Shown here one piece after another: positions 6,454 to 24,192 of a DNA stretch of 32,000 nucleotides. Source of the stretch: Candidatus Nanosynbacter sp. BB002 (GTDB taxonomy: Bacteria; Patescibacteriota; Saccharimonadia; Saccharimonadales; Saccharimonadaceae); the NCBI RefSeq assembly GCF_037013405.1, contig NZ_CP146064.1:450001-482000 (forward strand), written 5' to 3'. Each line of letters begins with the position of its first letter. Positions within the stretch are counted from its first letter, which is position 1. The notes beneath the pieces were generated by a model. It did not search any database. It was given only the letters and a program-made list of their open reading frames with translations, and had not been told where the DNA came from. Made by a program: the position numbers and the translations under genes.

Positions 6454-7005
6454 TTAGTCCACCAATGTTTCTTTGACGCGCTTTGAAACCACAAAATATA
6501 GTGACAGTAGTCCAGCAACGATGAAGTAGATGAATATTCCACCGATGGTGCCAACAATTCGTTCTGCATCAGAATCTTTGCGCATTGAGGCAATGACAAT
6601 CTGAAGCAAGGTAAAATACGTAGCAGACGTCATATATGCGGCAATGGCCAGATAGCGGCCAACTTTTTTCTGCAGGCTAATCAACACGACAGTGGTAAAG
6701 GATAGAATAGCAATGATTGGCGCAAAGATGATCGACACAGCGCCTTCAGGACTGCTCAATCTTAGCACGGCACCGAAGAACATCAGTGTATAGATGATAC
6801 CACCAAAGCCCATTAGCACTGTTAAAAATGCCAACCAACCTTTGACACCCTTCAGGGAGTTTGCCATCACAACATACTGCACGGGAGCAGCTGACGGCTG
6901 TGCAAAATATTGTTGATTGGCGTCTTCTTGTGTGGTTTGTTCAGAAACATGAGCTTCTGTAACTCTTGGAGTTTCTGTTGTTTTTTCCTGTGATGCTGTT
7001 GCCAT
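6454..7005 (-). CDS. Hypothetical polytopic membrane protein (DUF2569-like?)
   Basis: 183 aa. Acidic, Thr/Gln-rich N-terminal tail, then about 4 hydrophobic helices (GWLAFLTVLMGFGGIIY...). The family assignment is only an impression. Confidence 0.6.
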   Translation of the reverse strand: MATASQEKTTETPRVTEAHVSEQTTQEDANQQYFAQPSAAPVQYVVMANSLKGVKGWLAFLTVLMGFGGIIYTLMFFGAVLRLSSPEGAVSIIFAPIIAILSFTTVVLISLQKKVGRYLAIAAYMTSATYFTLLQIVIASMRKDSDAERIVGTIGGIFIYFIVAGLLSLYFVVSKRVKETLVD

Positions 7006-7040
7006 AATGATTTACATTCTCCTTATGAAAATATCTGCTC

Positions 7041-7069
7041 TAGATTATACCATCGTAACCAGTTATAGT
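7041..7069 (+). promoter_or_regulatory. Putative promoter for trehalase (leaderless arrangement)
   Basis: TAGATT (7041-7046), 17-nt spacer, TATAGT (7064-7069), then 6 nt to the ATG at 7076. Confidence 0.4.
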
Positions 7070-7075
7070 AAAAGT

Positions 7076-8674: not shown

Positions 8675-8675
8675 G

Positions 8676-9848: not shown

Positions 9849-9927
9849 ATATTTATTATACCGCATTCGCATCCTCCCGCTCTATATAGTAAAATGGTTA
9901 ATGGTATCAGTTAAACGAGGAGGGTAA

Positions 9928-11472
9928 GTGAAACATATCACGATCAAACATCGTCTGAGTGCTTTTACAGCAAGTTTAGTATTTGCACTCGTTGCGGTCG
10001 CGGCAATCGCGTGGCCAATTGCAACGTCATCAAACGCCAAAGCCGCCAGCCCAGCGCTCAACGCAACTGCGTATGAAGTGTCCAGGCCTGGCAAGCCACA
10101 CAGCTTTGTCACAACATCCCAAACAGAAATCCAACAAGCAGCCAAAAATGGCTTCACAACAGTGCGCCCTATTTTTATGGTGTCAACAACTGCAGGCAGC
10201 GGTTTGGTGCCAGTGTATCGCGCTGACGCAACACTACAAGACGGCAACTACACAAGTCTTTTGACGGTCAATAAAAATGAGGCTGACAATGCTTGTAAAA
10301 AGTACGGATTCACCTGCAAAGGAATCGCCTTTTACGCTCAAGCTGAGCTGAAAGATGGCGCAGAGATGGTTTACCGCATGCGGTACAAGCATTTCAATTT
10401 CCGCCAAGTCACTGCCAAAGATCGACAAGAGCTTCAGAAAGCTGGCTATATCCAGGAGAGCCGAGAGTGGTTCTACGTCAAACCAGTCCAGAACAACAAC
10501 GGCAACGGTAACGGTAACGTTGACCCAGTCAAAGATGGTAAATTCTCCATCGCGGTCTATCCTGACACACAGCAGGAAGTTTTCCAATGGTCAGGCAATC
10601 AATTCGCTGCCCGCACCAACTGGACCGTGAAAAATAAGGAAAAATACGACATCCGCTTCTTGGCTCACACTGGTGACATGGTCACTTCTGGTGGACATGA
10701 AGGCATTGATAAACCAGATCAATACATCGTCGCGTCCAACGCATTCAAGACTATTGATCAGGCAAACATTCCTTACTTGACGACCATTGGTAACCACGAC
10801 ACAAAGGCTGTTTGTGGCGGCGGTGGCGCTTGTGACTGGCGACACACCAACGAATGGGCACGAGACACGACGGTATTCAATCGATACTTCTCTGCTACAC
10901 GTCAGAAATTGTCAGCCAACCAAATGTTTGAAAATGGCAAAGTTGACAACGCCTACAAAACTTTCACCGCTGAAGGTAAACAGTGGCTTGTCTTGACACT
11001 TGAGCTTTGGCCGCGCGCTGAGGCGGTCAATTGGGCGAAGAACGTCGTAGCCTCACATCCAAAGCACAACGTTATCGTCCTGAGTCACTCACTGCTGAAC
11101 GCCGATGGCTCAATCGGTACTGGCGCTGGATACGGTACCGGCAAACAAACCCCGCGCTATGTCTACGACAATTTGATCTTGGCATATCCAAACATCCGTA
11201 TGGCCTTCTCAGGACACGTGGGACAGGCAGCCAGCCGCGTTGACACAGGTAAGCACGGCAACAAGGTTGCATCATTCTTGGGTGCATTCCACTCAAATGA
11301 CTACAACCCAACCAGGATTTTGACGGTCGACACCATCAACAACACAGTGACGTCCGACATTCAGGCGGCTTCGATCCGCGATGCTTACAAAGCAAAATAT
11401 CCAAACGCAACATTGCCAAACTACGACCAATACGACGTATCGTACTCAGGCATGAACTTTGTTAATCCATAA
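9928..11472 (+). CDS. Secreted calcineurin-like metallophosphoesterase with N-terminal repeat domain
   Basis: GTG start with SD gaggaggg (9917-9924). Signal peptide (..IATSSNAKA). Three approximately 45-aa repeats (..VYR....A...GF/GY...FY) and an NNNGNGNGN linker. Phosphoesterase motifs HTGDMV, GNHD, LSHS and GHVG. Confidence 0.8.
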   Translation: MKHITIKHRLSAFTASLVFALVAVAAIAWPIATSSNAKAASPALNATAYEVSRPGKPHSFVTTSQTEIQQAAKNGFTTVRPIFMVSTTAGSGLVPVYRADATLQDGNYTSLLTVNKNEADNACKKYGFTCKGIAFYAQAELKDGAEMVYRMRYKHFNFRQVTAKDRQELQKAGYIQESREWFYVKPVQNNNGNGNGNVDPVKDGKFSIAVYPDTQQEVFQWSGNQFAARTNWTVKNKEKYDIRFLAHTGDMVTSGGHEGIDKPDQYIVASNAFKTIDQANIPYLTTIGNHDTKAVCGGGGACDWRHTNEWARDTTVFNRYFSATRQKLSANQMFENGKVDNAYKTFTAEGKQWLVLTLELWPRAEAVNWAKNVVASHPKHNVIVLSHSLLNADGSIGTGAGYGTGKQTPRYVYDNLILAYPNIRMAFSGHVGQAASRVDTGKHGNKVASFLGAFHSNDYNPTRILTVDTINNTVTSDIQAASIRDAYKAKYPNATLPNYDQYDVSYSGMNFVNP

Positions 11473-11492
11473 CAAACACGGCAAACAAATTA

Positions 11493-11518
11493 GTAGCCCC
11501 GTCATCAGGCGGGGCTAC
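11493..11518. terminator. Bidirectional hairpin terminator
   Basis: gtagccccg (11493-11501) / cggggctac (11510-11518), 8-nt loop, followed by ttta. Overlaps the stop codon of the minus-strand GH13 gene. Confidence 0.65.
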
Positions 11519-13089
11519 TTTATGTCAAGCAATACACCACCATAGCCAGGCAATTGCAATACGTCGCCGTCTACACGGATATCTGGGTTGGTACCAATGA
11601 TGACACGGCCAGACTCCGGCAACCACACCGTTTGTGCTGAGTCCGCGAAGTTGATATATATCTGCAGCTGTTGACCGTCAAGTTGGCGACGAAATCCTAA
11701 GACAAATCCGTTGCCAGTGTCCAGCTTTTCCATGCTGCCGTAGCGTAAAATTGGCAGTTCATGTCGCAGCTCCAATAATTTTCGACATAGCCACAACAGC
11801 GAGCTTGGATCTTTCGTCTCTTTAGCGACATTGACTTGCTTGCGGTTAGAATGCACCGGCAACCACGGCAGCACATTGGCAAACCCGGCATAGCGAGAAC
11901 TGTTCCATTGCATGGGCGTACGCGCGCGGTTGCGGTCATCCTGCAGCGAATGGTGAAAGCCATCTTGCGCATCATACTGCGTCAAATCAACGTCTTCCAT
12001 GCCAATTTCATCACCATAGTACATCACACTGACGCCCGGACACAGCAGATTAAGGAACTGCAGCGCACGGGACCGCGGCAAACCCAGGCGGGACGTCACA
12101 CGCGGCTGGTCGTGATTGCCAAGGCAAAAGAATGGTATATTCTCCCCTGCCGCTTCCAAATAGTTCATGATATTCCAGCCAGTATGCTCACCGTGCCAGT
12201 CATTTTGCCGATGTTCCATAAAAAAGGCCGTGGCTTTCGGATGAACGTGGATGACGTCATGATATTGTTGCCAAATGTCGCCAAGACGCTCATCTGGATA
12301 GAACTCAAATACCATCTGCTTGTCGTCATATTCATCACAAACACTCGCCAACTCATGCAGATATTCTTGAAAATGCGGCCCGTGTTTGCAATGGTTATGA
12401 ATGTAGGCGCCGTAGCTGTCAGCATCGCCATGAAAATGAGGATTTGGCGAATCATCACGCAGCTCTGGATCTTTGGAAATCCCCCAGATGGCGTCCACGC
12501 GCATGCCGTCAACGCCCATGTCAAACCAAAATCGCACCACGTCTTTGATGGCCAGGCGCACCTCAGGATTGTCCCAGTTGAGATCTGGCTGGGTTGGTAA
12601 AAATGAGTGCAAATAGTACTGACCAGAATCAGCATCAAACGTCCATGACTTGCCACCGGCCAAACTGACCCAATTGTTCGGTGCATGCCCGTCGTTACCG
12701 TCTCGCCACACATACCAATCTCGCTTAGGATTGTCCCGTCCAGAACGCGACTCAACGAACCACGCATGCTGGTCAGACGTGTGACACGGCACTAGGTCAA
12801 TCATCACCTTGATGTCGCGCGCGTGAGCCTCGTCCAACAACATACGAAAATCATCCAGACCACCAAACACCGGATCAACATTTTGATAATCCGCCACGTC
12901 ATAGCCAAAATCAGTCATGGGCGACGTGAAAAACGGCGAAATCCAAATGGCGTCAACGCCGAGATCACTGAGATAGTCCATCTTGAGCGTAATGCCATTC
13001 AAATCCCCGACCCCGTCACCGTTCAAGTCTCGGAAACTTCGCGGATAAATCTGATACAACGATCCAACATCACGCCACGCTTTAGTCAT
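11515..13089 (-). CDS. GH13 alpha-glucosidase / oligo-1,6-glucosidase-type enzyme
   Basis: 524 aa. YQIYPRSFRDLNGDGVGDLNG, GVDAIWISP, DLVPCHTS, GVDGMRVDA (nucleophile region), EFY and NHDQPR, which are the classic GH13 conserved regions. TATACT lies 6 nt upstream of the ATG (complement of 13096-13101). Confidence 0.92.
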   Translation of the reverse strand: MTKAWRDVGSLYQIYPRSFRDLNGDGVGDLNGITLKMDYLSDLGVDAIWISPFFTSPMTDFGYDVADYQNVDPVFGGLDDFRMLLDEAHARDIKVMIDLVPCHTSDQHAWFVESRSGRDNPKRDWYVWRDGNDGHAPNNWVSLAGGKSWTFDADSGQYYLHSFLPTQPDLNWDNPEVRLAIKDVVRFWFDMGVDGMRVDAIWGISKDPELRDDSPNPHFHGDADSYGAYIHNHCKHGPHFQEYLHELASVCDEYDDKQMVFEFYPDERLGDIWQQYHDVIHVHPKATAFFMEHRQNDWHGEHTGWNIMNYLEAAGENIPFFCLGNHDQPRVTSRLGLPRSRALQFLNLLCPGVSVMYYGDEIGMEDVDLTQYDAQDGFHHSLQDDRNRARTPMQWNSSRYAGFANVLPWLPVHSNRKQVNVAKETKDPSSLLWLCRKLLELRHELPILRYGSMEKLDTGNGFVLGFRRQLDGQQLQIYINFADSAQTVWLPESGRVIIGTNPDIRVDGDVLQLPGYGGVLLDIK

Positions 13090-13262
13090 GTTTTAAGTAT
13101 AAGCGAGATGAACAAAAAATACTAGCAGCTTACTATCCATTTTATCCAGTGCATAAGCGAAGCGTCATATAGCTAGGACTGTATTTGCCGTTCTACCACA
13201 CCCCCTACTGCAAGACGAAGTATACAATGGCTTATTCTATACGACATTGTATAATAAAACAT

Positions 13263-15533
13263 ATGTCATTTTTCTCTACAGATATTCAAAAATGGGGCTT
13301 GAGTCTATATACGACAAGATTACGTACTCGGAACTTCATTAAATACAGATTTATTGAAAGGTTTTCAGCTACTTGGATTGCTGTACTCATATTCATATCT
13401 CTAGCTTGGTTAATAATTTGTTTTGATTACTCCAGTGTTATTTTAAAGCCTGAGGAACTAAGCTCATTCTTTTTTAGCGTTGGTACAATTACCGGGTCTA
13501 TGCTTGCAATCGTTTTTGCATTTACGTCTCAGTTGATATCTAGATCAAATGAAGCTCTTTCTGCAAGATTCTATAAATCGTTTGCACGAGACACAAGAAT
13601 CGATCTAAGTTATATTCTATTGGGGTTTATAACGGTCGTCGAATTTATTCTTGGTATTATTACCACTAACAGCAATAATAGTGGTGCTAGGATTTTTTTA
13701 CCTAGAGTCGGCCTTTTATTGCTTTTACTGTCTATCATAATTTTGTACTGTTCCTATATTAGGCTTATTCGACTTATGAATAATGATCAGTTAGTACTTA
13801 TGCTGGCAAAAAATATAAAAAAAGAAATTGATGAGATGAACTATCTTGCAAAAAGAATCTCTCATATTTTGAATATTAAACTTAATAAAACATCTGATAA
13901 AGATAAACGTGCTACACAAGCTAATATATACACTACTCAGCTTCATCCTAAAGTTAATAATTTACAAAATCACCTTGATGGATTAATTGAACTATATTCT
14001 GTCAGCAAAGAGAAAAAAGATACGTATACTGCATATAACTGGCTACGCCTAGCATTTAACTTAATAATAGTATATACACTGTCTCGGAAATACAATACAT
14101 CAATTAAATGCAATCTCAAAGCTGGTCTAATCTCAGAAAGCGATGTTGCGGCTTTTATCCAAGCAAGTCTAGAGAAAATGTACTTTATATGGGAAAAGGC
14201 GTTAGCTGAAAATGATGTTGTAACAATAAGAAAATATATCAGGCATGTTCAAGATGTGGTGATAGCAAGCCTAGACGTCCAGCATATTGAGCGACCAGAA
14301 GAAAACCCCGCTTATCATACAGCAATTTATAATTTTACGGAAGTCATAGAAAATAGTATTAAACAGAAAAATGTTGATGCGCTATTTGAAGCTTCTGATG
14401 CGCTGAACCAAATAGCTAAAAAGGCTCTGCAGTTCAAACATCGTATTGATCCAGTAGAGAGTATTCTAAAATATCTGCATAAGATAATAGCCCAAGCTTC
14501 CGGACCTGATGATATGTATCCAGTCTTAAAGAATGGGATTGATAGCTTAACTAGCGTATGCAATCAAATATTCATCCAAGATGAACTAACTGACCGTAGG
14601 CTACGTATCATGCAAGATTATGTTCCAGACTGTATTATTCTGGGTGTAATGAACGACCGCGGCTTAATTGACACTACCCTGACTATGTTTGCCGATAACA
14701 TATTTGCATATGCTTCGCACGGAATTGGGGATAATATAGATAATATATCTGAAAACCAGATTAAAAAAATTATCAATATCTCGAAGCTTACCATTTCTAT
14801 ACTAAAAAGATTAGCAATTTTATCTATAGGTATACGTAGCGGAGTTCAAAGTATGAATGGAAACATACTCGTTATGCCTGATTTTTTATTTAAGATCTTA
14901 ACTAACGATAAGGTCGATGAAAGATACAAACAGGAAATCAAAGATTTACTATCAAAGCTAGCAGCATTACCTTCTAGCTTGCCTAAGCTGGAGACTGTAA
15001 AAGATTTTGATGATATAGAAGAATTTCTCGATAAACTCCTTCAAAGCTCGTTGATTGGGGTAGAAAATAATCAATTAGATTATTCGGGCAAAGTTTTAAG
15101 CTCTATTTTTAAATACCTTGAAGATGCGGTAAATAGCAAGGACAGTAAAGTCAACATAATGGGCCTATTAAGAGTTGTAAATAAAACTAAGACAATCGGC
15201 GCAGCCGCACAATCCCTCGGATATGAAGGCATAAGTAAAGCAGTTATTAAATTTATTAGAGGCTTTGAAGAACTATATCATAATAAATACTTTCCAGATG
15301 GATTTGATGAAAACAAACAATATACTCTTTCACCCTTATTTCTTCGTTCTGATCAAGATACAGCATATGACAGTGGCGTTGGGCTACCTTCGTACGTTGA
15401 TGACACACATGCACCGTTCTACAGACACCACGGTCAGAGTGCTTTAGATAAGTTTGAAAAAAGCATCTGGAGAGATGTCAAGAAGAAGAAAAAACAACAA
15501 AGCAATCAAGGAAATTCATCTCAAAATAGCTAA
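13263..15533 (+). CDS. Large hypothetical membrane protein: about 4 N-terminal TM helices, a long alpha-helical soluble domain and a Lys-rich tail
   Basis: The ORF is open from 13185 (TTG). In-frame ATGs lie at 13227 and 13263. The ATG at 13263 is preceded by TATAAT (13250-13255) plus 7 nt. TM segments include ATWIAVLIFISLAWLIICF, FFFSVGTITGSMLAIVFAF, LSYILLGFITVVEFILGIITT and VGLLLLLLSIIILYCSYI. The C-terminus is KKKKKQQSNQGNSSQNS. No catalytic motif was recognised. Confidence 0.7.
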   Translation: MSFFSTDIQKWGLSLYTTRLRTRNFIKYRFIERFSATWIAVLIFISLAWLIICFDYSSVILKPEELSSFFFSVGTITGSMLAIVFAFTSQLISRSNEALSARFYKSFARDTRIDLSYILLGFITVVEFILGIITTNSNNSGARIFLPRVGLLLLLLSIIILYCSYIRLIRLMNNDQLVLMLAKNIKKEIDEMNYLAKRISHILNIKLNKTSDKDKRATQANIYTTQLHPKVNNLQNHLDGLIELYSVSKEKKDTYTAYNWLRLAFNLIIVYTLSRKYNTSIKCNLKAGLISESDVAAFIQASLEKMYFIWEKALAENDVVTIRKYIRHVQDVVIASLDVQHIERPEENPAYHTAIYNFTEVIENSIKQKNVDALFEASDALNQIAKKALQFKHRIDPVESILKYLHKIIAQASGPDDMYPVLKNGIDSLTSVCNQIFIQDELTDRRLRIMQDYVPDCIILGVMNDRGLIDTTLTMFADNIFAYASHGIGDNIDNISENQIKKIINISKLTISILKRLAILSIGIRSGVQSMNGNILVMPDFLFKILTNDKVDERYKQEIKDLLSKLAALPSSLPKLETVKDFDDIEEFLDKLLQSSLIGVENNQLDYSGKVLSSIFKYLEDAVNSKDSKVNIMGLLRVVNKTKTIGAAAQSLGYEGISKAVIKFIRGFEELYHNKYFPDGFDENKQYTLSPLFLRSDQDTAYDSGVGLPSYVDDTHAPFYRHHGQSALDKFEKSIWRDVKKKKKQQSNQGNSSQNS

Positions 15534-15618
15534 ACCTATACACTGTCCGATAAAGCCTCTGTTGCTAATGAGCAAATTGATTAATATATCATGATGGTCA
15601 AGGATGCTCTATAAACTA

Positions 15619-15642
15619 AATGAACCCCGGAGAGGGTTCATT
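15619..15642 (+). terminator. Stem-loop downstream of the 782-aa ORF (possible terminator)
   Basis: aatgaaccc (15619-15627), loop cggaga, gggttcatt (15634-15642). Perfect 9-bp stem, but no clean T-run. Confidence 0.35.
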
Positions 15643-16003
15643 GAATCGAATGATTTCGTTTGTGGTGCGGGGTGATGTGCAATGTTTACACGAAATAGAG
15701 GCTGAGATCTGTAGGTGGGAGGATATTCTTCGCATTGGTTATGCAAGATATCTGAGAGGGGCATCGAGTCATACTTCTCAAGAGACTTACGCGTAGTTAT
15801 TATATGAGTTTTTCAAAGTATCTAGTTGACCGTATCAGTCGCAGCTTGCAAATATATCTTATATTCCCAGTTTGTTCTTGCTAAATCCTAAGATATTTAG
15901 ATTTAACTCGAGACATGATTGCGAAGTTGACTAATAGACTCTAAAGCGCCAAATAGGCATAGTAAGTCTGCTGCTGTAATGACTCTTATTGTAATACACG
16001 AGA

Positions 16004-16032
16004 TTGAAGCAATATTGCAGCTAGGGTATAAT
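16004..16032 (+). promoter_or_regulatory. Near-consensus sigma70 promoter of the two-gene operon
   Basis: TTGAAG (16004-16009), exactly 17-nt spacer, TATAAT (16027-16032). SD aggag (16051-16055) lies 3 nt before the ATG at 16059. Confidence 0.7.
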
Positions 16033-16058
16033 TAAGGTAAGTAAGTACTGAGGAGAAT

Positions 16059-16814
16059 ATGACTAAAAGTAAATTAACAAAGATTGTATATTTTGATGAG
16101 CAAACCGCTCTTGATTTTGTTGAAATACAAGACAAGGGTCGCTACATACGGGAAATTGAGAATGAAAATAAAGGCGAGGCGGGTACAACCACGGAGGCAT
16201 CGGTAAAAACGCCAAAACTACTTTCGATGTTTCGGCTTAACGCTGATATTCACGCTTCCATAGAAGCGCAAAAAATCGTCCGAAGTACTATCTCAAACAC
16301 AATACTTACTGACTTCATCGAAAAAGCCGAACAAGATAAAGGTGTCGAGCGTCTCTCAGGCTATGACATTCAACTAACAGAAGAAACTCGTCTAACAATC
16401 TATACGGCGATTACGGATGCTGCGAGTGGTAATCTTCCTATGGACCAACAAGGGATGGGAATGGAGGTGTCAAAGTTCGGCGCTGTACTAAAGAATTTGC
16501 AAGGATACCTCGAATGTAATGCCGTAAAGGACGGTAAGGCTAGTGCAATTCTTCGCTTCAATAGTACATCATTCCGAAATAACTACCGCCTTGCAGACAT
16601 CATTAATATGGACCTCCAGTACTACGGTGTAAAAGTGGGCACAACAGACACTTCAACACTCAGCTCCTTAGGCTTAGACCTTACAAATAATCCAACCGAC
16701 ACACAAGACGAGCTTAACCGACTCCTTAAAAGTACGGATGCCGATCCAAGTGGTGAAAAATTAGATGTCTACGATATTATCTTAGCTGGTGTATTCAACG
16801 ATGCAGCGAACTAA
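16059..16814 (+). CDS. Hypothetical 251-aa soluble protein, gene A of the candidate system
   Basis: Strong SD. No TM segment, signal peptide or catalytic motif recognisable by eye. The N-terminus is KIVYFDEQTALDFVEIQDKG, followed by an acidic/Thr-rich linker. The stop codon overlaps the start region of the downstream ATPase gene. Confidence 0.75.
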   Translation: MTKSKLTKIVYFDEQTALDFVEIQDKGRYIREIENENKGEAGTTTEASVKTPKLLSMFRLNADIHASIEAQKIVRSTISNTILTDFIEKAEQDKGVERLSGYDIQLTEETRLTIYTAITDAASGNLPMDQQGMGMEVSKFGAVLKNLQGYLECNAVKDGKASAILRFNSTSFRNNYRLADIINMDLQYYGVKVGTTDTSTLSSLGLDLTNNPTDTQDELNRLLKSTDADPSGEKLDVYDIILAGVFNDAAN

Positions 16815-17958
16815 GGGAGCTGTGGAGGTCAATTTTTTCTATGGTCCAGGCGATAAGCTTGGCGAGTCCTACGACCTTCAATCTGTCGAATCGCATATAA
16901 CACTACTACAGCTTGCCTCAAAGCTTGATGCTGCTCGACTATTATCTAGCAAGGAATTTCTCAATTTTGAACAAGATACACTTATAGTTTGGCCTGAGGA
17001 GTTTTTTGGTGTGAGAGACAACTTTACAAACTCTTTGTGGAGAAATGTTCTGGAGACAAATCTACAAAAAGCTTATGTCGTCAACCCTCCAAAGCTGCTC
17101 GTGGAACAGGCAAAATTGCTATTTGGAACCGAGTCGGTCACTGAGCGTAATCATTCATACAAGTCAATTAGTCTTGACTTAATAAAGGAGGTGTCTGGTA
17201 GTCTAGAGAATGCCATAGTTGGACAGGACGATGCTGTTCAATCCCTTCCACGCTGTCTCGTATCTTTAATGAATACTGAAAAGAAACCTGTAGTTGTTAT
17301 GCTCTATGGACCGACGGGCGTAGGAAAAACTGAATCTGCAAAGATAATCGCTAACGCCCTTGGCGGCGAGGCTAGTCGTATGCAATTTTCAATGCTTCAG
17401 ACGGGTTCTCTAGCGGAGTATCTTTATGGATCAAGAGTTAATAGTAGATCGTTTGCTGCAGACCTGCTCGAACGACAATCCAATGTTGTTATCTTTGATG
17501 AATTCGACAAGACTGGGAGTGTCTTCCATAGTGCATTCTATCAGTTATTTGATGAGGGCGTTTTTGTCGACAAGAATTATAGCGTCGATATGACAAACAC
17601 TCTCATAGTCTGTACGTCAAACTACTCTTCACTACAAGAAATACGACAGCATCTCGGAGAACCCCTTAGTTCACGTTTTTCAGCATTTATAAAGTATACT
17701 ACTCTTGATCAATCGGCGAAGACCGCCATCATCAAGCAAAAGATTGATAAACTCTACGAATCTTACCCAGAAGACATTAGACAGGCTATCAATAAAGACG
17801 AAATAGAAGAGCGATTTCTGCCACTACTATGTAAGCTGAGTAACGTCAGAGAGATAACGAATTATATTGAACATATAATGTCTAACTATATTCTTGCGTC
17901 TGTGGAGGAGACAGGTATCGAGAATAGCTCTCTACCAGAGACTTCTGAGCCGATATGA
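16801..17958 (+). CDS. Stand-alone Clp/Hsp100 D2-like (AAA_2-type) AAA+ ATPase, gene B of the candidate system
   Basis: IVGQDDAVQSL, Walker A LYGPTGVGKTESAK (nt 17308-17331), Walker B VVIFDEFDK, sensor-1 IVCTSN and LSSRFSA (Arg finger/sensor region). It aligns by eye with the housekeeping ClpC fragment at the window end (DEIEKAHPDV..LLEDGQLTD...IIILTSN). It lacks Clp_N, D1 and the middle domain. Start is ATG 16801 or GTG 16789; either overlaps gene A (14 or 26 nt). Confidence 0.8.
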   Translation: MQRTKGAVEVNFFYGPGDKLGESYDLQSVESHITLLQLASKLDAARLLSSKEFLNFEQDTLIVWPEEFFGVRDNFTNSLWRNVLETNLQKAYVVNPPKLLVEQAKLLFGTESVTERNHSYKSISLDLIKEVSGSLENAIVGQDDAVQSLPRCLVSLMNTEKKPVVVMLYGPTGVGKTESAKIIANALGGEASRMQFSMLQTGSLAEYLYGSRVNSRSFAADLLERQSNVVIFDEFDKTGSVFHSAFYQLFDEGVFVDKNYSVDMTNTLIVCTSNYSSLQEIRQHLGEPLSSRFSAFIKYTTLDQSAKTAIIKQKIDKLYESYPEDIRQAINKDEIEERFLPLLCKLSNVREITNYIEHIMSNYILASVEETGIENSSLPETSEPI

Positions 17959-18862
17959 GATACTGCAAATTTGGCCGACTTGACACCATTCTGTTTATGA
18001 TATCTACTGCGACAGGTGTCACCTCGCCCGTTTTCTGAAAGTATTCTGGACCACTAATCACAATACATACATCCTTGGCCATTGGAAAGACAATCTCTGA
18101 ATCTAGTCGACCAAAACCGCCAAAAGAAAAATGAACCACTCCATTTGGCATACGCTTAGCGACAAAAGCTGGCATATCACTTGTAATAAACTCATAACCG
18201 TCTGGTGCAAACATGATGTGCCAACCTCGCCTGATAAATTTTTCAGCTATTGGTAGTACCTGTTCAAGCATACCCCTAATCACATTGTTTTTCCCAATAT
18301 CTATCGTAAGCTTCATATTATTTTCATCAATCATATCTTGAATATCTTGCTTAGACAATTCACCGGTAAAATCGGGATTTTCTTTTAATAGTTTTTCAAA
18401 ACGTGCAGGATCATCCTTTTTGAACTCATCCATCATAGCTTTTCGAGCATTGTCATCGAGCAGTTTAGACAACTTATCTTTTAGAACGTCCTTTAGGAAC
18501 TTTATTCCCGTCTCTTCAAAAAAATCCATAGTACGCGGTACTCGTAAGTACTGAAGAGCGATGAATATCGAGATATCCGCTATCGTTGCATTATCAATCC
18601 ATTCACCTAGCCTTACTGTATTTAGCCAACCCTGATACTTTGACTCAATACCCTTTGCCAGCATTTCTTCAATTTCATCTGAATCCTTGCCGTCCTTGTC
18701 CTTTATTCGGTACAGATAATTCTGTGAGCATATTTTATCTATTTTGGTTGGCGTAATCATTTTGGACCGTGAATTGTACGCATAGGTCCTCTCCTTCTTT
18801 TCATCAAAAAGAAATCCTCTCAAGTAGGTCTGCGGAACGAAGTGTGCTTGCTTTGTCGCCAT
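17882..18862 (-). CDS. DUF4238-like protein
   Basis: The ORF is open to 19060, but the upstream extension is hydrophobic junk. The ATG at 18862 gives MATKQAHFVPQTYLRGF, matching the N-terminal H-(Y/F)-VPQ-x-YL-(R/K)-x-F motif I associate with DUF4238. TATAAT lies 6 nt upstream. The 3' end overlaps the ATPase gene by 77 nt. Confidence 0.65.
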   Translation of the reverse strand: MATKQAHFVPQTYLRGFLFDEKKERTYAYNSRSKMITPTKIDKICSQNYLYRIKDKDGKDSDEIEEMLAKGIESKYQGWLNTVRLGEWIDNATIADISIFIALQYLRVPRTMDFFEETGIKFLKDVLKDKLSKLLDDNARKAMMDEFKKDDPARFEKLLKENPDFTGELSKQDIQDMIDENNMKLTIDIGKNNVIRGMLEQVLPIAEKFIRRGWHIMFAPDGYEFITSDMPAFVAKRMPNGVVHFSFGGFGRLDSEIVFPMAKDVCIVISGPEYFQKTGEVTPVAVDIINRMVSSRPNLQYLISAQKSLVESYSRYLSPPQTQEYS

Positions 18863-18868
18863 AGTGTT

Positions 18869-18874
18869 ATTATA
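18869..18874 (-). promoter_or_regulatory. -10 box for leaderless DUF4238 mRNA
   Basis: The minus strand reads TATAAT-aacact-ATG. The -35 region is only AT-rich (ttttat). Confidence 0.4.
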
Positions 18875-19246
18875 GCGGTTATGCACCATAAATAAAAAAT
18901 AACATAGGCTTACCGCACTTAAGCAATATAATTTTTCGCACGATAGGGTTCTGAAAATGACACAGAAAAGAATAAAGTAGTAAGGGTGTCCTCTTGTTAC
19001 CATACTAGATCTTGGCTTTGGGTATCCGATAGAGGTAAAGATAATGCTAACGCGCAGCAAGCACTAAAAAGCACTTCGCTAGAAAGTCAACAATACGAAG
19101 GTCTTACAGATGAATTAGTCGAGACCGCTATTGCGCCTCAAAATACTCCTATAAAAGATGGCTTTATAAAAAAGAAGTGGTACACAAAGATAAGTCTACC
19201 GAGCTAGAAAATAGGGTTGGGTTGTCGGAAGGTATAAATTAATCAC

Positions 19247-19280
19247 AAACAAAAAAGACCTTTCAGAGCTTGAAAAGTCT
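19247..19280 (-). terminator. Rho-independent terminator of the tRNA-Phe/tRNA-Gly(GCC) transcription unit
   Basis: Minus strand: agactttt, loop caagctctg, aaaggtct (8 bp including one G-U), followed by tttttgttt. Confidence 0.65.
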
Positions 19281-19284
19281 TATA

Positions 19285-19360
19285 TGGTGCGGGTTAGGAG
19301 ACTCTAACTCCTGGCCTCTTCCATGGCAAGGAAGCGCTCTAACAACTGAGCTAAACCCGC
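19285..19360 (-). tRNA. tRNA-Gly (anticodon GCC), CCA encoded
   Basis: Manual cloverleaf: GCGGGTT-TA-GCTC-AGTTGTTA-GAGC-G-CTTCC-TTGCCAT-GGAAG-AGGCC-AGGAG-TTAGAGT-CTCCT-AACCCGC-A-CCA (76 nt). Confidence 0.9.
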
Positions 19361-19409
19361 ATGTGATTCACGATTCATTGTAGCAAAGCCGTGAACAAAA
19401 TGCAATATT

Positions 19410-19485
19410 TGGTGGCTCCTCCCAGACTTGAACTGGGGACACAAGGCTCTTCAGGCCTCTGCTCTACCAACTGAGCTAAAGAGCC
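19410..19485 (-). tRNA. tRNA-Phe (anticodon GAA), CCA encoded
   Basis: GGCTCTT-TA-GCTC-AGTTGGTA-GAGC-A-GAGGC-CTGAAGA-GCCTT-GTGTC-CCCAG-TTCAAGT-CTGGG-AGGAGCC-A-CCA (76 nt). Confidence 0.9.
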
Positions 19486-19551
19486 ACAAACTTGCTATTT
19501 CATTGTACTAAAGTTGTCGCTATCTGGCAAGGGTGATATACTTTTAAGAAC

Positions 19552-19626
19552 GCGGGTGTCGTATAACGGCTATTATGTGACCTTCCCAAGGTTGAGACGG
19601 GAGTTCGACTCTCCCCATCCGCACCA
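19552..19626 (+). tRNA. tRNA-Gly (anticodon CCC), CCA encoded
   Basis: GCGGGTG-TC-GTAT-AACGGCTA-TTAT-G-TGACC-TTCCCAA-GGTTG-AGAC-GGGAG-TTCGACT-CTCCC-CATCCGC-A-CCA (75 nt, a few G-U pairs). Confidence 0.85.
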
Positions 19627-19640
19627 CAATTTACCATCAC

Positions 19641-19668
19641 GAGCTTCCCGGCGAGGCTCTTTTTATTT
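19641..19668 (+). terminator. Rho-independent terminator after tRNA-Gly(CCC)
   Basis: gagcttc (19641-19647), loop ccggc, gaggctc (19653-19659), then tttttattt. Confidence 0.6.
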
Positions 19669-19688
19669 GTCCTGCAAATCAGCAAAGG

Positions 19689-19901
19689 CTAAACGGTTAT
19701 TTCGCTATATTCCGCGTAACCAAACTTGTCCAAAACTTCCTGACCAAATTTCCTAAGATTATCAATTCGTGCCTGTTCTTTGTCAAAATTTTCCTGCGTA
19801 CAAATGGCGTCATAAAGCGCTCTCATATCACTATCCTCAGGACTACTAGCAGTTGCCCCTGTAAGTTCTCGCTCCATTAGGTCATGATTAGCACGTGGCA
19901 T
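19689..19901 (-). CDS. Small hypothetical protein (70 aa)
   Basis: The ATG at 19901 (MPRANHDLMEREL...) is preceded by SD gaggagg. The listed 84-aa ORF start at 19943 lacks an SD. Confidence 0.55.
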   Translation of the reverse strand: MPRANHDLMERELTGATASSPEDSDMRALYDAICTQENFDKEQARIDNLRKFGQEVLDKFGYAEYSEITV

Positions 19902-20031
19902 ATTTCCATTCCTCCTCTTTTGACTCCATATATATCTTAGCACTATCTATACCATATAGAGTTTGCTTTTGCAATACTGTGTTCCGCGCCAATATAAAAA
20001 GTCCTCGACGTACATCGGGACTACTGACTAA

Positions 20032-20580
20032 CTATAATGGTTCTCGCAGGAACTTGGTGAGGTGCGCCTCCCCATAACTACGATTGTCCACCACAACAAT
20101 TCCGTTTTGAACTGGCACCTCACCTATTCCTGGGTGTGATAATATCATACATCCGCCCGGTTTGAGAAGCCCCATTAGTCGTGAAACTGTGGAAAACTGA
20201 GGATTATGATATGGTGGATCGGCAAAGATGATATCAAACTTCTCTGTTACGCTCATGCTTTTCAGCCAATTCGATATCGTTGTTTTTATTACAATAGATT
20301 TTTCATCGACGCCCAAACTGGCTATGTTTTCGGCGATCACGCGCTGCGCGACCCGGTCTCGCTCCACAAAAACCACCGACTCGGCACCGCGACTGAGTGC
20401 TTCCAGGCCAATCGCGCCAGAGCCAGCAAAAGCATCCAGCACCCGCGAACCGCGAACCGTCTCGCCCAGTGAATTAAACATTGCCGAACGGACTCGCTCA
20501 CCCATGGGATGTGTCGTCGAGCCTGGTGGAGTTTGAATGAATCGTCCGCCAAATTCCCCAGCGATGATGCGCACCCTCAC
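20032..20580 (-). CDS. rsmD: 16S rRNA (guanine966-N2)-methyltransferase RsmD
   Basis: RIIAGEFGGRFIQTPPGSTTHPMGERVRSAMFNSL, SAM-binding VLDAFAGSGAIGLEALSRGA and the DPPY motif (IIFADPPY). GTG start overlaps the upstream stop (GTGA). Confidence 0.9.
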   Translation of the reverse strand: MRVRIIAGEFGGRFIQTPPGSTTHPMGERVRSAMFNSLGETVRGSRVLDAFAGSGAIGLEALSRGAESVVFVERDRVAQRVIAENIASLGVDEKSIVIKTTISNWLKSMSVTEKFDIIFADPPYHNPQFSTVSRLMGLLKPGGCMILSHPGIGEVPVQNGIVVVDNRSYGEAHLTKFLREPL

Positions 20581-21392
20581 CGTTTAGCCTCAAGTTTCCA
20601 AACCGACGCTAGCCAGCCCAGCATGACGGCTTTGATGATGATCGGCATCAGTTCATGGTTAGTTTGCCACGCCAAATCAGTCGTCCAGCCGTTTTTGCCA
20701 AAATTGTCATACATCTTTAGGTCAGCCACAGCGTGCACTTGCTCTAGATAATATTTCCGATAGCCCTGTTGTTTGACCTGTAAAATCTCAGCCTCACTCG
20801 GCACAGCATCCTTAAAGCGCGGATAAGCCACTACGCTCGCCACACCAGCTTCAAACGCCACATGCATGGTCATCATGCCTTTAGCACCCCAAAACTTCCA
20901 GTTGTTTTTGATGAGCTCAATCCCCGTGTCACCCTTCATGACATTTTTCTTGAGGATGGAGGTTCGCGTCTCTAGACCTTCGCCGCCGCGCAGCTCCTGC
21001 ATGGCATGTTCCAGCGGGAAATGATGCGCTGGCGTCAAACCATCGGTGATGGCATGCGCCATCCACGCCGCTTCAAAAGCGGCTCGTTCAGAATTATGGT
21101 TCTGTAGCGCCTTCGCCAGATTATCAATATGCTGGTCGATCATCTCCAACAGTGCCGTGTCGTTCGGGTCGTCTGGATTGATGAAATGCCATGGTTCGTC
21201 GACAGCTGGACTTTTGCGCTTAACGCCATCGGGGCCGTTTTTGCCCTCAAAATGCAGAATATTTTTAACATCAGGAAATTCGCACCAATCAGGCAGCATC
21301 GGTTCAAGGTGTCGCCTGGCCACTCGATCTATCTTTTGATGAACACCGATAAATCGACCAGAGCCATCTCTAATTGTTGTTCCTGCGTACAT
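20577..21392 (-). CDS. Conserved hypothetical protein (His-rich; possibly a phospholipase C / P1 nuclease-like fold)
   Basis: 271 aa with a hydrophobic C-terminal helix. His/Asp/Trp clusters (WHFINPDD, WMAHAITDGLTPAHH). The family guess is weak. Confidence 0.5.
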   Translation of the reverse strand: MYAGTTIRDGSGRFIGVHQKIDRVARRHLEPMLPDWCEFPDVKNILHFEGKNGPDGVKRKSPAVDEPWHFINPDDPNDTALLEMIDQHIDNLAKALQNHNSERAAFEAAWMAHAITDGLTPAHHFPLEHAMQELRGGEGLETRTSILKKNVMKGDTGIELIKNNWKFWGAKGMMTMHVAFEAGVASVVAYPRFKDAVPSEAEILQVKQQGYRKYYLEQVHAVADLKMYDNFGKNGWTTDLAWQTNHELMPIIIKAVMLGWLASVWKLEAKR

Positions 21393-21393
21393 A

Positions 21394-23436
21394 TTAATTC
21401 AAAATGGTTAATCGCTGATAGCGACTGACGGCACGCGCCAGATGGTTATATTGTAACAAATCCCGCCCCTCTTTGACAAAGCGCTCGGCCTCCGTTTGCG
21501 CACGGGCGATCAGTGGCGTATCGCTCAGTGAGGCAATTTTCAGGTTCAGCGCGCCATGTTGCATCTTTCCATAGATCTCGCCAGGACCGCGCAGTTTCAG
21601 GTCAACTTCCGCCAAGTAAAATCCGTCTTGAGATTTCTCAATCTCTCTGAGACGCTGGGACGGCTTATCATGACCCGACATCATCAAATGACAAAAACTC
21701 TGATGCTGACCACGCCCAACCCGACCACGCAGCTGATGGAGCTGGCTGAGACCAAAATGATCGGCATTTTCGATGAGCATGACCGTGGCGTTTGGCACGT
21801 TAACGCCAACCTCCACCACCGTGGTACTCACTAGCATATCCAGCTCGCCGTCGGCAAACTGTTGCATGACCGCGGCTTTTTCCTCCGGCGGCAATTTACC
21901 GTGTAGCAATCCGACGCGGCGATGACGAAACATCGTTTTTGCCAATTTGTGATATTCCGCCTCGACCGATTTTTTGTCATTGTCAGGATTATCGTCGATC
22001 AACGGGCAGATGATATAGGCTTGGCGACCTTTGGCAATTTCTGCATCAATAGTTTCGTAGAGCTTTGGCGCTGAGGCTGGCGACCAAATTTTCGTTTCAA
22101 TCGGCTGGCGCCCGGCTGGCAGCTCGTCCAAAATCGAAATATCCAGTTCACCATACAAGGTCAACGCCAGACTTCGCGGGATCGGCGTGGCAGTCATGCT
22201 GAGCAGGTGTGGCATGTAGTCTGCCTTTTGTAATAATGCCTGCCGCTGCTTGACGCCGAACCGATGCTGCTCGTCAATTACCACAAACCCCAGCTTGTGG
22301 TACGCCACTTTTTCCTGAATCAGCGCGTGTGTACCAACCACCACGTTAATGTTGCCGCTCGCTAAATTGTCCAGCAGCTGCCGCCGCTGAGCGCCCTTGA
22401 CGTGTCCCGTCAGCAGTGCCACCGACACGCCAAATGGCGACAATAATTCATCCAGCGTCTTGGCGTGCTGAGTCGCCAAAATCTCCGTCGGCGCCATGAT
22501 GGCCGTCTGAAAGCCAGCCTGCGCCACTTCTGCCGCCACCAGCCCGGCGACCACGGTTTTGCCTGAGCCGACATCGCCCTGTAGTAGGCGATTCATCGGA
22601 TGCTCCGACTCCAAATCTTGCAAAATCTGCCAGGCGGCGCGGCGCTGCGCGTTGGTTAAGGGAAATGGCAATTGTTCGACAAATTGCTTGACGACCGGCT
22701 GATTGAACGGGATGCGCCAGCCAGTCAATTTGGTTTGTTCTTGCTTGTTGAGCTGCGCAGCCAAAATCATTTCAAACAATTCCTCAAACGCCAGCCGCTC
22801 ACGACCGCGAGCAATTTCCTCGTGACTATTTGGCGCGTGGAGGAACCTGACGGCTTCGGCGCGGCTGACTAGTTTTTGCCGCTGGACAATGTGTTCTGGT
22901 AGCGTCTCGGGCAAAAATTCCATGATAGGACGCAGATTTTTCAGCAAATCCTGCACGGTTTTGGGGCGGAGATTTTTGATTGATTTGTAGACGGGATGGA
23001 TGCCCGACGTAGGCTGGGCGTCGGATGTATCGGTTTGCTTGGCAAGTTCGACGGATGGATTGCTAATCTGATAGCTATTATATTGCATGCCAAATTGGCC
23101 GGAGAACATAAACTCGGCGTCAGATCTCAGCTGCGATTCGCGGTACGGTTGATTAAACCAAACGGCCTTGACCTTGCCAGAATCATCCGCCAACACCGCC
23201 GTAGTGATCCTTAAGCCCCGGCGCACAATCCGCGTCGAAATCGACTCGCAGCGCGCTCGCACCGTCACCTTGCCTGGTTGAAGATCAGCGATATTGACCG
23301 CCGCCGAATAATCATCATACGCCCGCGGCAAAAAATCTAGGACATCCGCCACCGTCTCCAACCCTGCCGCCGCCAACGCCTGAGCAGTTTTAGGGCCGAC
23401 GCCTTTGATATGTTCCAGTGGAGTTGTCAGCTTCAT
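21394..23436 (-). CDS. recG: ATP-dependent DNA helicase RecG
   Basis: 680 aa. N-terminal wedge/OB domain, helicase motif I GDVGSGKT, motif II DEQHRF, SMTATPIPR, and QLHQLRGRVGRG. Confidence 0.96.
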   Translation of the reverse strand: MKLTTPLEHIKGVGPKTAQALAAAGLETVADVLDFLPRAYDDYSAAVNIADLQPGKVTVRARCESISTRIVRRGLRITTAVLADDSGKVKAVWFNQPYRESQLRSDAEFMFSGQFGMQYNSYQISNPSVELAKQTDTSDAQPTSGIHPVYKSIKNLRPKTVQDLLKNLRPIMEFLPETLPEHIVQRQKLVSRAEAVRFLHAPNSHEEIARGRERLAFEELFEMILAAQLNKQEQTKLTGWRIPFNQPVVKQFVEQLPFPLTNAQRRAAWQILQDLESEHPMNRLLQGDVGSGKTVVAGLVAAEVAQAGFQTAIMAPTEILATQHAKTLDELLSPFGVSVALLTGHVKGAQRRQLLDNLASGNINVVVGTHALIQEKVAYHKLGFVVIDEQHRFGVKQRQALLQKADYMPHLLSMTATPIPRSLALTLYGELDISILDELPAGRQPIETKIWSPASAPKLYETIDAEIAKGRQAYIICPLIDDNPDNDKKSVEAEYHKLAKTMFRHRRVGLLHGKLPPEEKAAVMQQFADGELDMLVSTTVVEVGVNVPNATVMLIENADHFGLSQLHQLRGRVGRGQHQSFCHLMMSGHDKPSQRLREIEKSQDGFYLAEVDLKLRGPGEIYGKMQHGALNLKIASLSDTPLIARAQTEAERFVKEGRDLLQYNHLARAVSRYQRLTILN

Positions 23437-24192
23437 CTACGAAACAGCGTTGATGCCTTCCAGTGCGTAGGCGGTATCTTCCCAGCGTTCCACAGCGATA
23501 CAATCAATGCCCATATTTTTGACTGGGAAATCATTGCCGCCTTCTTCCAGTTTATCGCCGAAGAATAGAATCTCCTCTTTGGTTACACCTGTCGCTTCCA
23601 TTAGTTTCTTCATGCCGTACGCCTTGTCAATGCCAGGCTTGGTGACATCCAAGCTGGTGGTGCCTGCCGTCCGAATTTCAAATTCTGGAATGCGTGCTTT
23701 GACAGCATCGTTGAGCAATTTACGTTTTTCCTTGTTGGCTTCAGCCCAGGCGTATTTGTCTTCAGGAGTAGCCTTTTGACCCAGCGCAGAGTATGTCACC
23801 TGACTGAGGCGATCTTCGATGATTTCGCCAGCTGGATTGTCCACCCACATATCAAGCTCCTTAGCTGAGGTCTCAATTGCCTCAAAAATCCGAGCTTTTT
23901 GCTCTTCAGTCAAGTCCTCCTGATATTGCAATCGCCATTCGCCGTCCTGGAAGCGATAGTAACGAGTGCCACATGTTGGCATGATGTGCAGCCGGCTAAG
24001 ATCAACGCCCGGAACTTGTTCAATTTGCCTGACAGTGTTTGGATAGATCACTCCTTCAAAATCAGTACCAGAAATGATGCACACGTCGTAATGTTTCAGC
24101 AACTCCGCCAACAGACCAGCCATGCGCGGCGTAGCTGGCATTTTCGACAAGACAATAGTGTCGTCTGAGTCAAAAGCTATAATTTTCTTCAT
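23437..24192 (-). CDS. HAD-IIB family hydrolase (sugar phosphatase / phosphomannomutase-like)
   Basis: DxDxT motif FDSDDT at the N-terminus. SGT, a K in TKPGIDK, and a terminal GDK..EGGND motif. The start codon overlaps the tyrS stop by 1 nt (TAATG). Confidence 0.8.
   Translation of the reverse strand: MKKIIAFDSDDTIVLSKMPATPRMAGLLAELLKHYDVCIISGTDFEGVIYPNTVRQIEQVPGVDLSRLHIMPTCGTRYYRFQDGEWRLQYQEDLTEEQKARIFEAIETSAKELDMWVDNPAGEIIEDRLSQVTYSALGQKATPEDKYAWAEANKEKRKLLNDAVKARIPEFEIRTAGTTSLDVTKPGIDKAYGMKKLMEATGVTKEEILFFGDKLEEGGNDFPVKNMGIDCIAVERWEDTAYALEGINAVS

Follow-up and report, generated by a model that had tools for sequence, protein, structure and literature searches.

Dodola is a two-gene anti-phage system consisting of a DUF6414 protein and a ClpB-like protein, and the passages that deal with it in two papers describe it as active against phage SPP1 in Bacillus subtilis (PMC11514479, citing Millman 2022; bioRxiv 10.1101/2024.10.26.620412). 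The naming of the system in 2022 is attributed to Millman et al. 2022 by later citing papers, for example in the corresponding passage of PMC11514479; the names Dodola, ClpB and DUF6414 are absent from the bioRxiv version of Millman et al., and the attribution rests on these later papers. The Dodola of Streptococcus thermophilus protects broadly against streptococcal phages when it is carried on a low-copy vector or on the chromosome, but not on a high-copy vector (bioRxiv 10.1101/2024.10.22.618286). Bacillus-derived systems and that of S. thermophilus are the only ones for which the phenotype has been shown (PMC11514479; bioRxiv 10.1101/2024.10.22.618286), and a 2026 review lists the mechanism as unknown (PMC12926258). 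The stretch analyzed here, referred to as the window, comprises 32,000 nucleotides (nt) of Candidatus Nanosynbacter sp. BB002 (contig NZ_CP146064.1, positions 450,001 to 482,000). Two adjacent genes in its center, dolA and dolB, very probably form a canonical Dodola anti-phage system, one cassette among several in a tRNA-adjacent hotspot of Candidatus Saccharibacteria; this is the best overall explanation of the locus.

Identification of the Dodola Pair

Both proteins match the two component families of Dodola from end to end. DolA aligns with the PADLOC DolA profile PDLC03837 at E 2.2e-54, its residues 3-245 lying on profile positions 2-257 of 258, and with Pfam DUF6414 at E 1.2e-18 (68.4 bits, for a cut-off of 25). 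A first-pass annotation, made from the letters alone, had found no recognizable motif in this open reading frame (ORF) of 251 amino acids (aa); the protein belongs to a family that is catalogued in both Pfam and PADLOC as DUF6414/DolA. For DolB, the match to the PADLOC DolB profile PDLC03838 reaches E 3.5e-106, with residues 13-371 on profile positions 3-370 of 375, and the Pfam domain AAA_2 is recognized at E 8.4e-14 (52.4 bits, for a cut-off of 27). The sequence features by which Dodola is defined are all found here: both families are present, dolA comes first, the genes lie on the same strand with a tight junction between them, and the ATPase residues of DolB are intact. That the pair belongs to the Dodola family (DolA/DolB) is close to certain.

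Dodola is already known as a type of system, and the present pair is no new kind of system. The first-pass annotation had proposed an undescribed defense system; the anti-phage or conflict character and the location in a foreign island stand, but the word undescribed does not, as the PADLOC Dodola profiles match over their full length and the system has been tested in two hosts. Standard annotation with PADLOC or DefenseFinder would label the pair Dodola.

Conservation of the Pair in Other Lineages

Relatives of DolA were scanned in one genome per species, which gave 12 loci. Six are metagenome-assembled genomes (MAGs) of Candidatus Saccharibacteria, with 86-94% identity; the others, at 27-36%, belong to Bifidobacterium, Aquipuribacter, Aeromicrobium, Leptospira, Priestia and Agrilactobacillus. 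In 12/12 genome loci, the gene that directly follows dolA encodes a DolB homolog; these loci are spread over Saccharibacteria, Actinomycetota, Spirochaetota and Bacillota. The same order is found in Clostridium algidicarnis, in Listeria monocytogenes, on a Latilactobacillus plasmid and on Enterococcus plasmids, with junctions of 0-8 nt. Thus, the co-occurrence of homologs of the first gene with single-domain AAA_2 ATPases, which the first-pass annotation had put forward as a check of its idea, holds at all 12 loci and at the further ones. A natural fusion of the two proteins was encountered once (P0211, 661 aa), with DUF6414 at residues 12-251 and AAA_2 at 421-540.

A second check proposed at that stage, the enrichment of such pairs near defense genes, had a similar outcome. 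DolA-DolB pairs are found beside GmrSD and an Eco57I-type enzyme, beside a type I restriction-modification (R-M) subunit and a TIR gene, and beside RelE/ParE and a DNA methyltransferase, and the local site is itself a defense hotspot (see below). DolA homologs are carried by 28 plasmids, many of them mobilizable or conjugative.

Additional genes adjoin the pair at some of these loci. On the Enterococcus faecium plasmid NZ_CP109840.1 (L017, 5521-7849), the DUF6414-AAA pair is preceded, at a distance of 13 bp and in the same orientation, by a gene for a 154-aa TIR-domain protein, and DolA homologs with the same 30.6% identity occur on six further Enterococcus plasmids. This arrangement may be a three-gene TIR-Dodola variant; if so, it would hint that DolAB can sense or regulate on behalf of an additional effector. 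In Listeria monocytogenes (L014, 9988-11547), a gene for a 519-aa caspase-like Peptidase_C14 protein directly follows dolB on the same strand, and the gene is present in at least 22 similar Listeria contigs. In the Saccharibacteria MAG L005 (10048-13283), Dodola has no DUF4238 neighbor; after it come the same tRNA-Gly, a gene for a tyrosine recombinase (10320-11216) and phage-like genes, and this order suggests that it is linked to an integrative element there.

The DolB and DolA Proteins

The AlphaFold2 (AF2) model of DolB, with a predicted local distance difference test score (pLDDT) of 91.8, consists of an N-terminal alpha/beta domain, an AAA+ large subdomain and a helical lid; there is a single AAA+ module, at residues ~125-370. 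The best Foldseek matches in the PDB are Skd3/human CLPB (E 2e-13) and the D2 rings of ClpA and ClpC (E ~1e-12) and of ClpB, and the DolB profile finds ClpC among PDB sequences at E 7e-28. The Clp D2-like module that the first-pass annotation had recognized is well founded: GPTGVGKT, VVIFDEFDK, TSN and SRF are present and fall on invariant columns of an alignment of 47 diverse homologs, from which all conservation values for DolB are taken (Table 1). Walker A and B, sensor 1, R292 and R350 do not vary among these homologs, and DolB is therefore almost certainly an active, oligomeric ATPase, as far as conserved residues can tell.

The region equivalent to Clp pore loop 1 is a loop between helices 201-209 and 218-223 of the AF2 model. 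At position 213, His is the commonest residue (26/47) and Val is found here; no aromatic residue is conserved in the loop across the 47 homologs, a reading that is based on sequence alignment and the AF2 model, not on a solved structure. Immediately before the loop, a nearly invariant Y207-L-[F/Y]-G210 is present.

The only invariant residues of the N-terminal domain are G15 and N95-P96-P97. No member of the family matches Pfam in this domain at E<0.01, and the best match among PDB sequences has E 0.024. The PADLOC DolB profile spans the domain, which hence belongs to canonical DolB. The N95-P96-P97 motif prompted the idea of a degenerate methyltransferase, which was rejected: the motif has no aromatic fourth residue, the best PDB match, a protein lysine methyltransferase, covers 44 residues of a domain of ~120 aa at the E-value just given, and Pfam offers no support.

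The AF2 model of DolA has a pLDDT of 72 and shows a mixed beta-sheet core, with residues 39-65 disordered. Foldseek searches of the PDB and BFVD with this model returned nothing at E<=0.001, and the sequence gives no secondary Pfam signal. An exhaustive profile search gave 618 representatives of the family at 50% identity, nearly all of them standalone proteins of ~250 aa. Eighteen positions are invariant, many of them polar, including K8, D13, T81, R166, N168, N174, Y176, D180 and D239. A phage origin of DolA was considered and rejected, as only one weak match was found among 50,697 phage records and no PHROG family corresponds to it.

A Variable Hotspot Next to a tRNA Cluster

The pair lies in an AT-rich block between an alpha-glucosidase gene and a tRNA cluster. 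The GC content is 0.33-0.43 across positions ~13000-19500, against ~0.50 in the flanks. The foreign-looking block beside a DUF4238 gene and a tRNA cluster, as noticed in the first-pass annotation, is recovered with its DUF4238 domain and its three tRNAs (Table 1). The flanks (6842-13111 and 19247-24695) are syntenic with loci L002 and L004 at ~92% nucleotide identity, and the interior varies. Within it, the segment 15950-18940, which contains dolA, dolB and the DUF4238 gene, is common to 5/6 Saccharibacteria MAGs and also present in L027 and L068; the segment 13111-15950, with an ORF of 756 aa, is exchanged for other genes in most of the six MAGs.

In total, 80 metagenome loci with an adjacent alpha-glucosidase gene were collected; the distance from this gene to the tRNA cluster extends from a few hundred bp to ~10 kb. 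For 48 metagenome loci, in which the cargo of the interval varies, a range of 0.1 to ~10 kb was obtained, with lengths of commonly 0.9 kb or more; in many loci of ~0.9 kb, only a CsoR-like gene and a gene of 158 aa are present. In ten loci, the alpha-glucosidase shares 95% identity or more with that of the window; Dodola is found in a single one of them (L027), and the other nine have different cargo, 1.6-4.9 kb in size. The cargo proteins form 60 clusters, including HpaII and DpnII restriction enzymes with their methyltransferases, DUF4238, a reverse transcriptase and SocA/Panacea, as well as Beta_protein, an M78/IrrE peptidase, an ADP-ribosylglycohydrolase and serine recombinases. The interval is a defense hotspot with cargo turnover at the strain level: because the cargo varies among near-identical strains, the foreign block beside the tRNAs is a true hotspot.

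The divergence of the cassette differs between relatives. In L004, the block 15950-18940 shows 85.6% nucleotide identity, compared with 92.3% and 96.0% for the flanks; in L002, all three values are ~92%. The divergence in L004 would fit a defense cassette that evolves faster or recombines.

No flanking direct repeats of at least 14 nt (tRNA 3' end, att-like) were found around the block, and no recombinase or integrase ORF was found in 13090-19284. The interpretation of the island as an integrated element was rejected for these reasons, the window containing neither att-like direct repeats nor an integrase. Recombinases are present in the same hotspot in other strains. The tRNA cluster holds a second, small variable site: in L021, L039, L040, L044, L045, L049 and L087, an insertion of ~1.3-1.5 kb splits tRNA-Gly(ccc) from tRNA-Phe and tRNA-Gly(gcc).

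Putative Mechanism and Alternatives

DolA and DolB would form a stoichiometric complex; this is proposed because of the coupling of the genes, their strict adjacency and the one fusion. In this complex, DolB would be the oligomeric, catalytically competent ATPase, with DolA as its client. Since the tyrosine of the Clp pore loop is lost, DolB is more likely to be an ATP-driven switch or remodeler than a processive, threading unfoldase. DolA, for which no structural relative was detected and which has invariant polar residues, would be the effector. Upon infection, DolB would release, assemble or activate DolA, and DolA would then keep the phage from multiplying, which would probably be costly for the cell. 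Such a complex, in which DolB is a switch that restrains or activates the effector DolA, is put forward tentatively. The broader idea of the first-pass annotation, that the ATPase licenses, remodels or restrains its small partner, is a reasonable hypothesis. A more far-reaching version is speculative and somewhat unlikely: the mechanism of Dodola would be new for AAA+-based immunity, with DolA as an effector of new fold and DolB as an infection-sensing switch that has no threading tyrosine and a unique NPP N-terminal domain, and the hotspot would be useful for the discovery of defense genes, the 756-aa protein being one candidate.

The main rival reverses the roles. DolA would be a sensor or adaptor that hands a phage protein over to DolB, and DolB would unfold or disassemble this target in the manner of ClpB, Skd3 or ClpC-MecA, interfering directly with the phage and not killing the cell. 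This is possible, though doubtful as things stand. The nearest structures of DolB are true unfoldases and disaggregases, including the single-ring Skd3, all its ATPase motifs are intact, DolA has no recognizable enzymatic fold, and the pair suffices for defense in heterologous hosts according to the literature. Moreover, the Y207-L-[F/Y]-G210 motif resembles the aromatic-hydrophobic-Gly motif of pore loops, which keeps an adaptor-unfoldase pair under consideration. However, this YLYG aligns with the helix 'RLVG' that precedes the pore loop in ClpC, and the true loop of DolB is shorter and has no aromatic residue. The invariant polar residues of DolA also suggest an active site or a fixed interface rather than a fast-evolving surface for the recognition of phages. 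Finally, on reading the DolB sequence, which was not searched formally in this respect, neither a ClpP-docking loop nor a protease partner was seen.

That the pair is mainly an addiction, stabilization or anti-plasmid module, similar to toxin-antitoxin systems and with phage defense as a side effect, is improbable. Carriage on plasmids that are often mobilizable or conjugative would fit, as would the RelE/ParE genes and recombinases that adjoin some pairs and the loss of protection on a high-copy vector, which suggests dosage sensitivity (bioRxiv 10.1101/2024.10.22.618286). Against this, single copies on the chromosome are active against phages in plaque assays (same reference), no integrase, att repeat or plasmid gene is present in the window, and the divergence of the Dodola block in L002, similar to that of its flanks, points to stable vertical inheritance.

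Gene Layout and Expression Signals

The coordinates of all the features are collected in Table 1. Three starts are available for dolB: GTG 16789 (389 aa), ATG 16801 (385 aa) and GTG 16822 (378 aa). The public gene call (ENA ERZ27318981 k141_42083) uses ATG 16801 and gives 385 aa. With this start, dolB overlaps dolA by 14 nt, the stop codon of dolA being at 16812-16814, as the overlap reported in the first-pass annotation implied. In the relative L004, the codon equivalent to 16822 is ATG and is preceded by GAGGAG, so that a start 7 nt past the dolA stop is possible. Under either start of dolB, the two genes are, to judge from this arrangement, tightly coupled.

A promoter of the type TTGAAG-17-TATAAT and a Shine-Dalgarno sequence had been claimed in front of dolA, and both are present. 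As a statistically special site, the promoter was rejected: 17 promoter-like matches are observed in the AT-rich region, compared with 21.4 +/- 3.9 in shuffled sequences, which is not above chance. The -10 box TATAAT, GGAGGA and the ATG of dolA do not vary among seven related loci; the -35 box drifts. The putative dolA promoter is supported because the -10 box and the Shine-Dalgarno sequence are conserved, not because of the number of matches. Read in this way, dolA and dolB are transcribed from their own putative promoter.

A palindromic hairpin with a perfect 10-bp stem (AATGAACCC-TCTC-CGGGGTTCATT) occupies positions 15619-15642 of the window, within the 525 bp that separate the 756-aa gene from the dolA promoter. 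The homology of the window with L001-L004 begins only at 15950, past this hairpin, which may be a terminator or the boundary of a cassette. A search of the intergenic regions with Rfam revealed no non-coding RNA beyond the three tRNAs.

Table 1. Positions of the Dodola genes, of the motifs of DolB and of the surrounding features, numbered from the first letter of the window.
Feature	Position	Strand	Remarks
dolA (component A, DUF6414)	16059-16814	+	251 aa
dolB (component B, single-ring Clp-D2-like AAA+ ATPase)	16801-17958	+	385 aa
Promoter-like site, TTGAAG (16004-16009), 17-nt spacer, TATAAT (16027-16032)	16004-16032	+	10/12 consensus matches
Shine-Dalgarno GAGGAG of dolA	16050-16055	+	GGAGGA core kept in 7 related loci
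DolB N-terminal family-specific alpha/beta domain (~residues 1-125)	16801-17175	+	Confidently modeled beta-alpha-beta units
Walker A GPTGVGKT (G170-T177; K176)	17308-17331	+	G170, G173, G175, K176 and T177 invariant in 47/47
Shortened pore-loop-1 equivalent GSRVNSRS (G210-S217)	17428-17451	+	Aligned with ClpC 'GAPPGYVGHDDGG'
Walker B VVIFDEFDK (D233, E234)	17485-17511	+	D233, E234, D236 and K237 invariant in 47/47
Sensor-1 TSN (T272-N274)	17614-17622	+	T272 and N274 invariant; S273 in 46/47
R292, candidate arginine finger (in SSRF)	17674-17676	+	Invariant in 47/47; putative role by analogy with Clp D2
R350, candidate sensor-2 arginine, lid domain	17848-17850	+	Invariant in 47/47; putative role
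DUF4238 gene, 326 aa from ATG 18862	17882-18862	-	Pfam DUF4238 E 4.5e-36, profile positions 3-277 of 281
Orphan membrane protein, 756 aa	13263-15533	+	Hydrophobic N-terminal segments; GC ~0.34
AT-rich variable cargo block between alpha-glucosidase gene and tRNA cluster	13090-19284	.	GC content and variability among relatives
tRNA-Gly(gcc), tRNA-Phe(gaa), tRNA-Gly(ccc) cluster bounding the hotspot	19285-19626	.	ARAGORN, Rfam
C-terminal end of separate Clp/Hsp100 protein (AAA_2 and ClpB_D2-small)	31418-31972	-	Barely similar to DolB

Neighboring Genes

The gene downstream of dolB encodes a DUF4238 protein, called with either 326 or 335 aa. Its match to the PADLOC profile DUF4238-Pers is weak (E 6.6e-10). 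The gene is convergent with dolB, and the 3' ends overlap by 77 nt (17882-17958), leaving no room for terminators; this arrangement is kept in L001-L004. A DUF4238 gene lies beside Dodola in 5/6 Saccharibacteria loci; in L052, L058, L069 and L096, the hotspot contains such a gene but no Dodola. It is probably a separate single-gene defense candidate of the Rst_DUF4238 type, as suggested by its domain and distribution.

On the other side, the 756-aa protein has no match in Pfam, PADLOC, NCBIfam or PHROGs. Its 62 homologs all come from metagenomes or from Saccharimonadales, and a Pfam domain is found in 0/62. In L032 and L082, its gene is present in the hotspot without Dodola. The 756-aa gene is independent cargo of the hotspot and an unexplored candidate defense gene.

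Either gene could in principle be a part of the system, which would then be a unit of three or four genes, Dodola together with the convergent DUF4238 gene, the membrane protein or both. The conservation of 15950-18940 as a block, in the MAGs as well as in L027 and L068, and the 3' overlap speak for such a unit, and the TIR gene next to the enterococcal plasmid pair indicates that accessory genes occur in some variants. Nevertheless, a larger unit is very unlikely. In L005, Dodola is found without DUF4238, both neighbors occur without Dodola in the loci just listed, and both are absent near the pair in 6/6 of the non-Saccharibacteria loci (0/6 exceptions). DUF4238 alone is a listed system, and its co-occurrence with Dodola in one clade is explained by shared descent. 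As their distributions are independent of Dodola, the two proteins were rejected as extra Dodola subunits.

Another Clp gene reaches into the window near its end. The first-pass annotation had held it to be a different copy, and this is borne out: it encodes the C-terminus of another Clp/Hsp100 protein and resembles DolB only marginally. The idea that the pair itself is a housekeeping chaperone paralog, an additional ClpB-like disaggregase that has its own co-chaperone and no part in conflicts with mobile elements, can practically be dismissed: DolB is homologous to the D2 rings of Clp/Hsp100 and the pair has a fixed chromosomal position in this Saccharibacteria clade, but it is present in only 1/10 near-identical strains, it is distributed patchily across lineages, it is found on plasmids and beside defense genes, its base composition looks foreign, DolB scores far below the NCBIfam Clp cut-offs, the window has its separate full Clp/Hsp100 gene, and phage-defense phenotypes have been published.

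Significance

A canonical, active Dodola system, with DolB as a switch, has to be weighed against several contrary points. The similarity to Dodola-family proteins of other phyla is only 27-37%, and the anti-phage function of the present copy is consequently transferred by family membership. The fusion P0211 could be a frameshift or a gene-calling artefact. The Y207-L-[F/Y]-G210 motif could serve as a pore loop of an unconventional kind, and threading would then again be a workable mechanism. Saccharibacteria are difficult organisms to manipulate. Lastly, protection by Dodola is reported to be weak or absent in some set-ups, its activity depending on the context (PMC11514479).

The genomes of Candidatus Saccharibacteria are smaller than 1 Mb, and the immunity of these bacteria beyond R-M and rare CRISPR systems is poorly charted. 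The present locus documents Dodola in this lineage. Furthermore, the DNA from the tRNA cluster to the alpha-glucosidase gene proves to be a clear defense hotspot, with a cargo that turns over from strain to strain. The combination of intact ATPase motifs, a missing pore-loop tyrosine and a DolA without detectable structural relative narrows the hypotheses about the mechanism of Dodola. The host lineage, the hotspot and these constraints on the mechanism are what is new here, and mildly so.

Comparison with Known Systems

DolB also matches the PADLOC profiles of PDC-M37B, the ATPase of PDC-M37, at E 1.5e-24 and 6e-22, in its AAA+ part. These matches are far weaker than the one to DolB and begin only at residue ~114, and DolA matches no PDC-M37 profile. 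PADLOC is known to call Dodola and PDC-M37 as duplicates at one locus (PMC11811056).

With the D2 rings of Clp/Hsp100 proteins and with Skd3, DolB shares the fold of the AAA+ large and lid subdomains, Walker A and B and the positions of sensor 1, arginine finger and sensor 2. In contrast to these proteins, it is a single ring and lacks the coiled-coil M-domain and ankyrin repeats; Pfam recognizes neither Clp_N nor ClpB_D2-small nor a second AAA domain in it. The GYVG pore loop of Clp D2, with its substrate-gripping tyrosine, is replaced by the shorter GSRVNSRS, without a conserved aromatic residue, and the alpha/beta domain at the N-terminus is peculiar to the DolB family. The NCBIfam scores for ClpA, ClpB and ClpV are only 45-63 bits, for cut-offs of 885-1232 (ClpB, 44.8 vs. 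1232). Despite its D2 fold, DolB is not a Clp/Hsp100 proper: the number of rings, the accessory domains and the pore loop do not agree.

In RADAR (RdrA/RdrB), PARIS (AriA/AriB) and the TRIP13-HORMA module of CBASS, an oligomeric ATPase controls, or senses for, a partner encoded in the same operon. Dodola may follow the same logic of an ATPase plus a partner, a likeness that is conceptual only; DolB has weak PADLOC matches to TRIP13 (E 1.3e-5) and IetA (E 1.5e-5). However, homology of DolA to RdrB, AriB or HORMA proteins was not detected, the fold searches having returned nothing at E<=0.001, and DolB belongs to a different AAA+ clade. DUF4238 alone is listed as the single-gene system Rst_DUF4238 (bioRxiv 10.1101/2024.10.26.620412), which concerns the neighboring gene only: it carries the full DUF4238 domain, but its PADLOC match is weak and it is not part of Dodola.

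Dodola itself is the closest system. The two families, the gene order, the strand, the tight junction, the protein lengths and the defense-island context are the same, and the PADLOC matches extend over the full length of the profiles. The differences lie in the host, Candidatus Saccharibacteria, in the similarity of 27-37% to the retrieved members from Bacillota and Actinomycetota, and in the convergent DUF4238 gene with which the present copy is co-inherited.

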